64,000 nt of DNA, taken from Escherichia phage PECP20. Within the stretch, counting starts at the first letter, position 1. Each line of letters starts with the position of its first letter. Both the position numbers and the translations under genes were made by a program. The stretch lies in the sequence record OQ873415.1. One strand, written 5' to 3'. The notes beneath the pieces are model-generated. The model was not told where the DNA came from. It worked only from the letters and a program-made list of their open reading frames with translations, and did not search any database. This document shows positions 6,771 through 49,824 of this stretch, in pieces.

Positions 6771-6986
6771 GATAGACCTCCATTTAAAGATAAGCCTATC
6801 ATAACACGAGAGGAGGGAATGTAAACTACTTTTTAAGCTTTCCTACTAAAGGTCCATCAGGGCCAGGTTGTTCTAACATGAATAACGATGCTTTAAAAAG
6901 CAATGTTAACCCTTTCACCATTCGATACCATGTCTCAAAGTCTTTTTCCTTGATTTCTAGTAAGAATTTCTCTTTAAATTTCTCTT

Positions 6987-7175
6987 TCATTTCCAAGGAC
7001 TCCATGGTGGAGGGTCGTCATAATAAGAGGCAAGGTCTTTCAGGGCTTCAACAGGTAAACTAAAGCCGTGTCGTTGTATAATACTATCTAGTTCATCAAC
7101 AAGTTCACTACGATGCACTTTAGGAGCCTTGACTTCAGGCTCATCAAACATACTCATAAGGTCCATCTTATTCAC
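6987..7175 (-). CDS. hypothetical protein (62 aa)
   Basis: Small acidic ORF overlapping next gene start by 8 nt. Confidence 0.4.
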   Translation of the reverse strand: MNKMDLMSMFDEPEVKAPKVHRSELVDELDSIIQRHGFSLPVEALKDLASYYDDPPPWSPWK

Positions 7176-7632
7176 CTAAATAAAAACTAGCAGGTTCAGA
7201 GAATGTTTCTAGTGCTACACCTTTTGTCTTAAAAAATTTCCAAATAGCTCGTTGCAAATGGATTAAATCTGCTAATGATGTAATAAAGTATTTTTTGGCA
7301 AAATACGTATGGTCTCGCTTTTCAAACAGGTCTAAACGCTTTTCAGGATTCACATAAACAGCATTTTCTGTAGATTCATAACCTAAGTCCTTTATGCCTT
7401 CTTCAAGACTAAACGGAGAATTTTTAGAATGAGTAATAGCTCCAACTCGCTCTACACGAATTTTGTAACCTTTAGGAATCTGCAATTTGCAGAATTCTTC
7501 TACGATATATTGCGGATTATTTAGACTTTTGTTAATGAGAATAGCTATTTCTAGTGGAGTCTTATCTTCTACTGGTATATGTTTAAATGACTTGGCTTCA
7601 AGCAAATACATTTTAAATAACATAGCATCCAT
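7168..7632 (-). CDS. hypothetical protein (154 aa)
   Basis: ORF in mrh region by synteny. Confidence 0.6.
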   Translation of the reverse strand: MDAMLFKMYLLEAKSFKHIPVEDKTPLEIAILINKSLNNPQYIVEEFCKLQIPKGYKIRVERVGAITHSKNSPFSLEEGIKDLGYESTENAVYVNPEKRLDLFEKRDHTYFAKKYFITSLADLIHLQRAIWKFFKTKGVALETFSEPASFYLGE

Positions 7633-7810
7633 TATAATTTCCTCGATGGTTCACCCATATAAAGTTTTACAATACGTTCGCCTTCATCTTCGACGAGCTT
7701 TTCTTCATGTTTCTGGAATTCTTTAGCCATATTCTCTTCAAGAACATCTAACCAATCTTCTGGTCCGACTCCATCATTCCAGCTTTTAAACCATTTTACT
7801 ATTCTGTTCA

Positions 7811-48144: not shown

Positions 48145-48333
48145 CTATGCTTCAGTTGCTTGTCCGGCAGTGCTATTAATATAGCTCGATTTGATATTCT
48201 CAATACCCTGAGAATGTGATGCATTTACCGAACCGTTGGAAGGCCCAGAAGACTGGTTACCACCAGCTCCTGTGGTAGCACCAACAGAGAATGCCATCAT
48301 TACTGCGAATAAACCAATTGCTAATTTTTTCAT
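48145..48333 (-). CDS. small secreted protein (62 aa)
   Basis: Signal-peptide-like N-terminus followed by Gly/Ser/Asn-rich region. Confidence 0.55.
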   Translation of the reverse strand: MKKLAIGLFAVMMAFSVGATTGAGGNQSSGPSNGSVNASHSQGIENIKSSYINSTAGQATEA

Positions 48334-48364: not shown

Positions 48365-49354
48365 TTATTTATAGTAAGAATTATGATTTTCGAGATAGAC
48401 TTGCTCAAGGAAATCATCCCAGAAACTCATATCTACTTTTTGTTGCATACCATTCTTGGCAGCTTGTTCTGACGCATGTTCAACTTGGTCAACGATATCT
48501 TCTAGGAATTCTTGTACAGTTTTAAACGTATGTTTACCAAGCTTAACATCGAGAATAAATGGAGCATCCTGAAGTGGGTAAACCAGGTCGCCGGTTTTGT
48601 AAATTTCCAATAATTGAAGTCCACCACGACATGCATGACTCAATGCTTTCCAGTCAATACCTTCGTTAGCTTCTGCTTTACGAGCACGTTCACCATAGTT
48701 CTCTTCCAGTTTAACCAGGATAGCATTGAACTCTTTATTGGTTAACGTGTCTTGGAATTTACGGTCTAACAGACTATAGAATGTTTGCTTACCTGTTTTC
48801 TCGTTTTCGGTTTCAACCCATGAAGCAAATTCACCTACAGGTAGAACATTCTTCATATGTGATAAACGAATTACTGCACCATTATCAAAGTATTGTCCCC
48901 ATTCATTAGAACGTTTAAGGGCTTGACGAAGAACAGCCAGTCGAGAACCCTTGACACCGTATTTAGAAGCTTGCTTACGGACGTACCCTAAATAAGATTT
49001 CATGTTAGTGGTATAGAAACGAGACCTGTTATCTTGAATATACTTCCATACATCAGGCAAATCAGATTTAACTACTAGACTTGGTGGAGTATGAAGCATA
49101 TCTAATGCGACGGTTTCACCATCTGCAGCTAGTTTAAAGAAATATTTGAGACTATATAACTCATGGTCTACGTCGTCTTTTGTGTTCTTAGAAGATGTGT
49201 TATTCGTGTTCTTGCTCATATGTTCTTTAACGTTACCGGTCAAAATATCACGAGCATGAGGGACATAAATTTCTTTAAAATCGACGTCAGATTCAGGAGT
49301 AGACGTTCCATAAAGGTGGCTACCAAAGTAGCTTTTCATAATTGTTTTCATCAT
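48365..49354 (-). CDS. nucleotidyltransferase-fold protein (Pol-beta superfamily signature)
   Basis: 329 aa; N-terminal FGSHLYGTSTPESDVDF fits the G[GS]-x9-13-D-x-[DE] minimal NTase motif. Confidence 0.7.
   Translation of the reverse strand: MMKTIMKSYFGSHLYGTSTPESDVDFKEIYVPHARDILTGNVKEHMSKNTNNTSSKNTKDDVDHELYSLKYFFKLAADGETVALDMLHTPPSLVVKSDLPDVWKYIQDNRSRFYTTNMKSYLGYVRKQASKYGVKGSRLAVLRQALKRSNEWGQYFDNGAVIRLSHMKNVLPVGEFASWVETENEKTGKQTFYSLLDRKFQDTLTNKEFNAILVKLEENYGERARKAEANEGIDWKALSHACRGGLQLLEIYKTGDLVYPLQDAPFILDVKLGKHTFKTVQEFLEDIVDQVEHASEQAAKNGMQQKVDMSFWDDFLEQVYLENHNSYYK
48366..48373 (-). promoter_or_regulatory. T4 late promoter core TATAAATA upstream of 48145..48333
   Basis: Plus-strand tatttata about 35 nt upstream of the ATG. 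Confidence 0.45.
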
Positions 49355-49824
49355 TTAGCCTTATATTCAAGAGTAGGACAGACTTTTTCTTTACGAGCTT
49401 TAAGGTATTCACCTATTAATGATTTCTTACGTTCAATAGGCTCAAGTCCATTTTTAATTCGTTCTTGGTTTTGCGCAATGAGCTCAATTTCTTTATAATA
49501 TTTTCTGTCGTTATATTTGTCTAACAACCAAGACGGACCAATTACCAACCCGGTAGCAATAAAAGCCATGACTGCTACAATTAAAATGCCTACACCAATT
49601 GAGGCTGGAACTAATGTCCATAGACTGCTAAAAACAAAGAATTTAGTTAAAATTTCCTGGCCAATGATTGTGACTGCTGCTAAAATCGCAAATCCAATAA
49701 TTGAAACAGCCAATACCGGGATTAACGTTTTCCAAAAATAAGCACACAACGTTTTCGGACGATTCCATGTACTATTGAACGCGGCATAAATTTTAAAGTG
49801 CCAAGAGTTTTCATTGATAATCAT
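49351..49824 (-). CDS. integral membrane protein (157 aa)
   Basis: Three to four predicted TM helices. Confidence 0.65.
   Translation of the reverse strand: MIINENSWHFKIYAAFNSTWNRPKTLCAYFWKTLIPVLAVSIIGFAILAAVTIIGQEILTKFFVFSSLWTLVPASIGVGILIVAVMAFIATGLVIGPSWLLDKYNDRKYYKEIELIAQNQERIKNGLEPIERKKSLIGEYLKARKEKVCPTLEYKAK

Follow-up and report, generated by a model that had tools for sequence, protein, structure and literature searches.

What does the predicted nucleotidyltransferase (NTase) in the accessory region of Escherichia phage PECP20 do? We analyzed a 64,000-nucleotide stretch of this phage (sequence record OQ873415.1; hereafter, the window), in which a preliminary description had reported a 329-amino-acid (aa) protein with a minimal NTase signature at positions 48365-49354. 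The open reading frame (ORF) list verified this ORF, which runs from ATG to stop on the minus strand; the strand had not been given before. The gene opens with two adjacent in-frame start codons (ATGATG), and the second one at 49351, which gives a protein of 328 aa, is used by many database homologues. The N-terminal sequence of the protein, hereafter the NTase, is MMKTIMKSYFGSHLYGTSTPESDVDF. It contains G11-S12, followed after 10 residues by D23-x-D25, and therefore matches the pattern G[GS]-x(9-13)-D-x-[DE], as described previously. Of the 84 ORFs in the window that are 100 aa or longer, 5 matched this regular expression, as did 8.9% of composition-preserving shuffles of the NTase, indicating that on its own it is no better than chance. 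The signal is real at the level of profiles and conservation.

As shown by profile searches, the NTase matched Pfam PF10127, RlaP (“RNA repair pathway DNA polymerase beta family”), with an E value of 5.7e-13 and 49.6 bits, compared to a gathering cut-off of 23. This match covered residues 4-137 of the NTase and only positions 20-144 of the 249 model positions. PHROG 388 (“nucleotidyltransferase”) matched the NTase over its full length (E 2.3e-126). In a conservation alignment with 102 diverse relatives (35-52% identity), of which 101 also matched PF10127, G11, S12, D23, and D25 were invariant, and D61, D63, and D85 were conserved in at least 90%. The comparison of residues 5-93 with the short, canonical RlaP by hhalign gave a probability of 94.8% and an E value of 5.5e-8, with 26% identity across 82 columns; D63 was paired with the invariant D72 of the short RlaP paralogues, and D85 with their invariant Glu. 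On these profile and alignment grounds, the NTase is assigned to the RlaP family (PF10127/COG3541) of the DNA polymerase beta (Pol-beta) superfamily, and its predicted catalytic carboxylates D23, D25, and D63 are intact and conserved. The superfamily assignment in the preliminary description, which depended on a further catalytic acidic residue, is upheld, with D63 as that residue.

The AlphaFold2 (AF2) model of the NTase reached a predicted local distance difference test (pLDDT) score of 94.1 and a predicted template-modeling (pTM) score of 0.83, and its C-terminal part was all-helical. DSSP assigned strands to residues 2-9, 23-30, 44-48, and 61-67, and a helix to residues 11-14 (A1 numbering, that is, the 329-aa numbering minus 1). 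The model confidently predicts a two-domain fold, consisting of an NTase domain and a helical domain. A fold search of BFVD returned uncharacterized viral “nucleotidyltransferases” as the sole matches. PDB sequence searches with the NTase and with the 102-sequence profile gave nothing relevant, the crystal structure of PfRlaP being evidently not among the entries searched. PADLOC gave no hit for the NTase, and NCBIfam no usable hit.

The identity of the gene is clear from its orthologues. The window belongs to Mosigvirus (RB69-like) and shows 99.5% nucleotide identity with Enterobacteria phage ATK47, whose counterpart gene, annotated as “nucleotidyltransferase, similar to RB69 nrdC.11”, is also 99.5% identical at the nucleotide level. 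T4 NrdC.11 (NP_049709, “nucleotidyltransferase” in NC_000866) shares 79% aa identity with the NTase over the full length, and identical NTase proteins are present in public databases. The match of nrdC.11 orthologues to the COG3541 nucleotidyltransferases was already reported in 2006 (PMC1524935). The NTase annotation is, therefore, correct but ordinary and already known: since the gene is the orthologue of the long-annotated T4 nrdC.11, it is no new find. In many GenBank and UniProt entries, the NTase is mislabeled “thioredoxin”, apparently a carry-over from the name of the gene, nrdC.11; no similarity to thioredoxin was seen. In the ATK47 record, the “nrdC.11” note is also attached to the neighboring membrane protein.

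The tblastn search found the NTase in 1,567 phage records, mainly of Straboviridae, and an exhaustive search (E up to 1e-3) yielded 3,243 NTase clusters at 50% identity. Deletion of nrdC.11-mobD.3 is tolerated by T4 in the laboratory (PMC9825161). Some copies are incomplete. The Acinetobacter phage fHyAci03 has the NTase split into two coding sequences (CDSs), of which the N-terminal 144 aa still match PF10127, and in RB49-like phages (RB49 hit H59) only 67% of the NTase is covered, in two pieces. Such split or partial copies suggest decay in some lineages. Because of the many phage records, the tolerated deletion in T4, and the split and partial copies, we regard the NTase gene as a widespread accessory gene.

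Relatives in cellular genomes were then collected using the signature pattern DWKAxSHAxR. The 156 relatives obtained were full length, showed 33-52% identity, and came from Desulfobacterales, Nitrospirota, Alphaproteobacteria, and archaea. Since some of them lie on megabase-sized contigs, the long-form type is not phage-specific. For the analysis of gene neighborhoods, 80 cellular loci were kept, in which ORFs were called and the neighbors were clustered and typed by Pfam. Short RlaP was present in 17 of the 80 loci, and in 16 of these it was located directly downstream of the long form on the same strand (in the representative tested, PF10127 over the full length, E 3e-51). The main text of the preprint on RlaP (doi 10.64898/2025.12.29.696909) does not mention such a tandem pair of paralogous NTases. 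Other repair genes were also observed: RtcB in 8 loci, Pnkp (kinase-metallophosphatase-RNA ligase) in 7, Hen1 in 5, Ro60/TROVE in 4, and a genuine T4-type PNKP in 2. At least one of these five occurred within 6 kb in 16 of the 80 loci, from more than 10 lineages. When short RlaP was included, 28 loci had a repair gene or short RlaP near the long form, compared to a rough chance expectation of less than one in 80. In a Nitrosospira locus (L032), the gene order was Ro-RtcB-long form-short RlaP-Hen1...Pnkp. Association with RNA-repair genes, on which the name of the RlaP family is based, is found for the long subfamily, but not locally in the window.

Repair genes and tRNA genes were also found around phage homologues. 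On the 8.5-kb viral contig L181, an Rnl1-type ligase, a PHROG 944 protein, ThyX, a metallophosphatase, an AAA_33 kinase, and a long RlaP are encoded on one strand. The homologues of two roseophages (28% identity, PF10127 E 1.8e-12) lie within arrays of 22-25 tRNA genes. The array of Phaeobacter phage MD18 also carries a YAcAr/SLOG-family protein (Pfam E 6e-19) and several untyped CDSs. Away from the NTase locus, genes for both a polynucleotide kinase/phosphatase (pseT) and an RNA ligase are present in ATK47, the closest complete genome.

The biochemistry of the family comes from two RlaPs, of Pseudomonas fluorescens and P. aeruginosa, whose genes lie between rtcB and rtcA and which were characterized in a December 2025 preprint (doi 10.64898/2025.12.29.696909). 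These enzymes add one or two nucleoside monophosphates (NMPs) or deoxynucleoside monophosphates (dNMPs) to the 3′-OH of RNA, not to DNA or protein, and prefer Mn2+. They favor the 5′ half of nicked tRNA and show little nucleoside triphosphate (NTP) specificity; full-length tRNAs and rRNAs were labeled as well. When RlaP acted before ligation, a tRNA missing one anticodon-loop nucleotide partly regained aminoacylation. The 3′-OH product suits 5′-phosphate ligases of the T4 type more than RtcB, and RlaP was proposed to counteract “smart” ribotoxins, of which RloC is one (doi 10.64898/2025.12.29.696909). Earlier, the Aravind group had predicted that nucleotides removed by RloC-type nucleases are put back by phage RlaPs, and had noted that in jumbo phages the distribution of RlaP mirrors that of RNA ligases (PMC7824862).

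We assign a probability of about 0.55 to the reading that the NTase is a template-independent RNA 3′-nucleotidyltransferase, which acts after end-healing and before sealing when the phage repairs tRNA. Support comes from the core family membership, the conserved triad, the confidently predicted two-domain fold, the repair neighborhoods in cellular genomes and on one phage contig, the tRNA arrays of the roseophages, and the presence of pseT and a ligase in ATK47. According to this proposal, a host anticodon nuclease would cut tRNA, and a nuclease of the RloC type would also remove a nucleotide. Phage PseT would turn the ends into a 3′-OH and a 5′-phosphate, after which the NTase, via D23, D25, D63, and a divalent metal, would extend the 3′-OH of the 5′ fragment by one or two NMPs. 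The phage 5′-phosphate RNA ligase would then seal the break, and a fraction of the tRNA would be functional again. The RNA 3′-OH as acceptor would follow by analogy from the characterized paralogue; we also infer that the NTase targets tRNA, cooperates with PseT and the ligase, and serves in counter-defense. Signalling, tRNA repair, and anti-defense had all been offered as roles in the preliminary description. The evidence favors tRNA repair and anti-defense, whereas signalling is without support. RNA repair was discovered in T4, and NrdC.11 is its third putative repair enzyme. If NrdC.11 restores nucleotides excised by RloC-type nucleases, this would explain the response of T4-like phages to a host countermeasure that, as has been proposed, defeats the Pnkp/Rnl1 repair pathway.

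Several observations weigh against the repair role. In the preprint on RlaP, T4 NrdC.11 itself is given as “unknown function” (doi 10.64898/2025.12.29.696909). As judged by alignment, the characterized enzyme is a paralogue with which the NTase has no more than the NTase core in common, and homology of the C-terminal parts is not demonstrable. Both RlaP forms often occur in tandem in bacteria, which argues that their roles differ, and 52 of the 80 cellular loci lack a repair partner. In the window, Pfam and PHROG typing identified none of the NTase neighbors as an RNA-repair gene, and homologues of nrdC.10, y05I, the 62-aa secreted protein, and the membrane protein were all absent from the neighborhoods of the 80 cellular relatives. 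On five uncultivated viral contigs (L184, L192, L194, L196, and L198), the NTase homologue is located beside DNA replication genes, either primase-helicase or DNA polymerase; in the first three, the NTase is followed by a primase-helicase and a PolB-like gene. Finally, the tolerance of T4 to the loss of nrdC.11-mobD.3 is compatible with an accessory role but gives no phenotype.

The neighbor directly upstream of the NTase is a PHROG 944 membrane protein with hydrophobic segments within residues 25-102 and a conserved C-terminal motif, YLKAKKxKxCP. Judged from the sequence, the two genes are translationally coupled; a functional link is uncertain. The PHROG 944 family was found in 1,210 phage records, and its position upstream of the NTase is kept in T4-like phages. 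Elsewhere, its partners vary. In Pakpunavirus-like genomes, the genes directly downstream of it encode an Rnl1-type ligase and a P-loop kinase; on another contig (L108), it directly precedes a stand-alone Pnkp-type HAD phosphatase; and on L181 it has the ligase on one side and the kinase/NTase on the other. In ICP1 it is followed by a dNMP kinase-like gene and in L121 by a nicotinate phosphoribosyltransferase (NAPRTase), and in about a dozen loci it has no typed partner. Because these partners are mixed, we read PHROG 944 as a frequent resident of accessory or counter-defense clusters, which may also be linked specifically to RNA repair. In the Pakpunavirus-like phages, the PHROG 944, ligase, and kinase genes are followed by a phosphoribosyltransferase gene and a nicotinate/nicotinamide phosphoribosyltransferase-like gene, so that genes of RNA repair and NAD salvage stand side by side.

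The same chemistry may serve another purpose than anticodon-loop repair, namely RNA 3′-end tailing or maintenance in the form of tRNA 3′-CCA repair or completion, phage tRNA maturation, or tailing that alters the stability of host or phage RNAs. RNA 3′-OH addition with little NTP specificity and the labeling of full-length tRNAs and rRNAs would suit this view; the tRNA arrays of the roseophages fit maturation as well as repair, and in many loci no ligase is nearby. However, the known partners are ligases, end-healing enzymes, Hen1, and Ro, which argues for break repair rather than maturation, and no tRNA genes were found in the 64-kb window. Similarity to CCA-adding enzymes, one of the classes named in the preliminary description, was also absent: neither a PolyA_pol head profile nor a tRNA-binding body and tail was found, there was no match to such a family in Pfam or NCBIfam, and from the CCA/poly(A) class Foldseek returned only structures of non-canonical poly(A) polymerases and terminal uridylyltransferases (PAP/TUTase; E at least 0.08, probability at most 0.08). 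We consider tailing unlikely. Slightly less probable is that the long NrdC.11-type protein, instead of being a redundant RlaP, is a distinct enzyme with its own specificity, forming with the PHROG 944 protein a membrane-associated RNA-repair or counter-defense module in phages. A specificity of its own is suggested since bacteria keep the long form in tandem with the short form.

The adjacent membrane protein also recalls the HalA-HalB pair of the Hailong defense system, and the predicted fold of the NTase resembles that of HalB. HalB is described as making oligo-dA primed on its own tyrosine and working with HalA, a DNA-gated channel; the NTase has an invariant tyrosine, Y132. Under this view, the NTase would synthesize short (deoxy)nucleotide chains, possibly protein-primed, which would be used in replication or would act against a nucleotide-gated defense such as Hailong, as a decoy or an antidote. 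On the other hand, HalB (PDB 9dbh) is a protein of 217 aa with 16% identity to the NTase and no relation at the sequence or profile level, and PADLOC, as noted, had no hit. The membrane protein had no sequence relative in the PDB, HalA included, and was absent beside all 80 cellular relatives; no HalA-like partner of the NTase was seen. Canonical RlaP, moreover, does not extend DNA, and PHROG 944 elsewhere adjoins ligase, kinase, phosphatase, NAPRTase, and dNMP kinase genes. A DNA-linked or HalB-like role is, accordingly, more doubtful than either of the preceding alternatives. The idea of a Hailong-like gene pair was rejected owing to the lack of a HalA relation and the promiscuous contexts of PHROG 944.

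More improbable still is the nucleotidylylation of a small molecule or protein, by which an enzyme like the aminoglycoside or lincosamide NTases or the MntA antitoxin would inactivate a host toxin or metabolite. The top Foldseek matches did include ANT(4′) kanamycin NTases, LinB, and the MNT antitoxin, with probabilities up to 1.0, and a weak NCBIfam match to MntA lay over the motif. This match reached 13.1 bits compared to a cut-off of 60, and no HEPN gene is adjacent, so membership in the MntA-type MNT antitoxins (type VII toxin-antitoxin) is not indicated. ANT(4′) (1kny/6p01), LinB (3jyy), and the NTase-like 3c18 share the structural class, in which a helical domain comes after the Pol-beta NTase domain. 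They differ by identities of 8-12%, template-modeling (TM) scores of 0.25-0.31, small-molecule substrates, and unrelated genomic contexts. With no match to an ANT(4′)/Lnu/LinB family profile and no close fold, membership in the antibiotic NTases, also named in the preliminary description, is not supported. The likewise named cyclic-nucleotide synthase of the cGAS/DncV-like nucleotidyltransferase (CD-NTase) type, for signalling or for subversion of cyclic-oligonucleotide-based anti-phage signalling systems (CBASS), is effectively refuted; only the generic Pol-beta motif and the protein size speak for it, and neither a profile or fold match nor an effector operon was found. Thus, RNA 3′-end restoration during tRNA repair is the reading that we prefer.

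The locations of the features are listed in the table below. The NTase gene is part of the nrdC-tk accessory region, which is hyperplastic. On its upstream side lie genes for a y05I-like protein and the PHROG 944 protein, and on its downstream side those for a 62-aa secreted protein and the P-loop NTPase NrdC.10. As none of these has homologues beside the cellular relatives, they were rejected as obligatory partners of the NTase. In T4-like phages, those of Acinetobacter among them, NrdC.10 is the conserved downstream neighbor of the NTase; its AAA_22, AAA_16, and STAND matches were weak and all below the cut-offs. The 62-aa protein has a signal-peptide-like N-terminus and a Gly/Ser/Asn-rich tail. 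A Macro-domain protein of the tk.4 type, encoded a few kb from the NTase, is a candidate ADP-ribose-processing accessory enzyme. A promoter and terminator scan around the NTase was uninformative, with fewer promoter-like sites than in shuffles.

Table. Locations of the NTase gene, its predicted parts, neighboring genes in the window, and features of comparison loci (L numbers, with positions within each locus).
Feature	Location	Strand	Basis or remark
NrdC.11-type (long-form RlaP) NTase CDS	48365..49354	-	ORF list, PF10127, PHROG 388, identity to ATK47 and T4, AF2 model
Predicted N-terminal Pol-beta NTase core, residues 1-95; strand-helix-strand with G11 S12 and D23 x D25	49070..49354	-	Pfam, hhalign, DSSP
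Motif FGSHLYGTSTPESDVDF, residues 10-26; G11, S12, D23, D25 invariant	49277..49327	-	Regular expression and alignment
D63, predicted third catalytic carboxylate, in DDVDHE (residues 60-65), strand after the DxD strand	49166..49168	-	Conservation, hhalign
D85 (ALDMLH), further conserved acidic residue	49100..49102	-	Aligned with the invariant Glu of short RlaP (EWL)
Middle region (residues 96-215): a long helix carrying the invariant Y132 (QASKYG), followed by a poorly conserved beta-meander of three strands	48710..49069	-	Model, conservation map
C-terminal helical domain, residues 216-329	48368..48709	-	Conservation, model
Subfamily signature DWKALSHACR, residues 234-243 (K236, R243 invariant; H240 at least 90%)	48626-48655	-	Conservation
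Membrane protein, 157 aa, PHROG 944	49351..49824	-	E 3e-53; TGA stop overlaps NTase start (ATGATG)
62-aa protein, between NTase and nrdC.10	48145-48333	-	PHROG 2243
NrdC.10-like P-loop NTPase, 333 aa	46974-47975	-	PHROG 1250
Macro-domain protein, 155 aa	52942-53409	-	PF01661, E 1.9e-6
Phaeobacter phage MD18 NTase homologue	L002 7001-7990		Inside tRNA array
YAcAr/SLOG-family protein, MD18	L002 12321-12695		Inside tRNA array
Ruegeria phage vB_RpoS-V10 NTase homologue	L004 7001-8014		Inside tRNA array
Split NTase, Acinetobacter phage fHyAci03	L090 3815-4249 and 4271-4846		Two CDSs
Short RlaP (about 255-290 aa) in tandem with long NTase	L011, L028, L032, L044, L055, L058, L072, L075, L078, and others, ~6900-7800		One representative tested against PF10127
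PHROG 944, Rnl1-type ligase, and kinase, Pakpunavirus-like	L089 3001-4764
The same with the phosphoribosyltransferase genes	L089 3001-6405; also L114, L117-L119
PHROG 944 and HAD phosphatase	L108 4001-4906
PHROG 944 between ligase and kinase/NTase	L181 991-6311
Further PHROG 944 locus	L088 2923-4055

Compared to the canonical short RlaP, the NTase is placed by its alignments in a longer, paralogous RlaP subfamily, which is typified by T4 NrdC.11. Both forms have in common the Pfam family, a catalytic core with three aligned carboxylates, and, by the model of the long form, the layout of an NTase domain plus a helical domain, and the long subfamily, too, is associated with RNA ligase and end-healing genes. 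In the PfRlaP crystal structure, the substrate cleft is formed by the helical C-terminal domain, whose last helix packs against the NTase domain. In contrast, the NrdC.11 type is ~75 residues longer (328 aa compared to about 255 aa), and the sequence similarity network of the RlaP family places T4 NrdC.11 in a separate cluster (5, compared to 1a; doi 10.64898/2025.12.29.696909). Alignment of motifs places roughly 75-85 residues without counterpart in short RlaP, with approximate boundaries, in the middle region, which may represent an insertion. The alignment of the C-terminal halves was not significant (hhalign E 0.057, probability 1%), although the Y...K-x3-[HY]-A-x-R motifs are collinear; within this non-significant alignment, DWKALSHACR of the NTase is collinear with K-x3-Y-A-x-R of short RlaP. 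The two forms also differ in their distribution in phages: T4-like phages have the long form only, whereas the short form was found in 86 phage records (compared to 1,567 for the long form), mainly of jumbo phages and none T4-like. The closest known counterparts are NrdC.11 of T4 and of RB69, orthologues whose genes occupy the same position in the nrdC-tk region and likewise precede nrdC.10. In T4, the homing endonuclease gene mobD adjoins nrdC.11, whereas the PHROG 944 membrane protein gene takes that place in PECP20; otherwise, the systems show no difference of substance.

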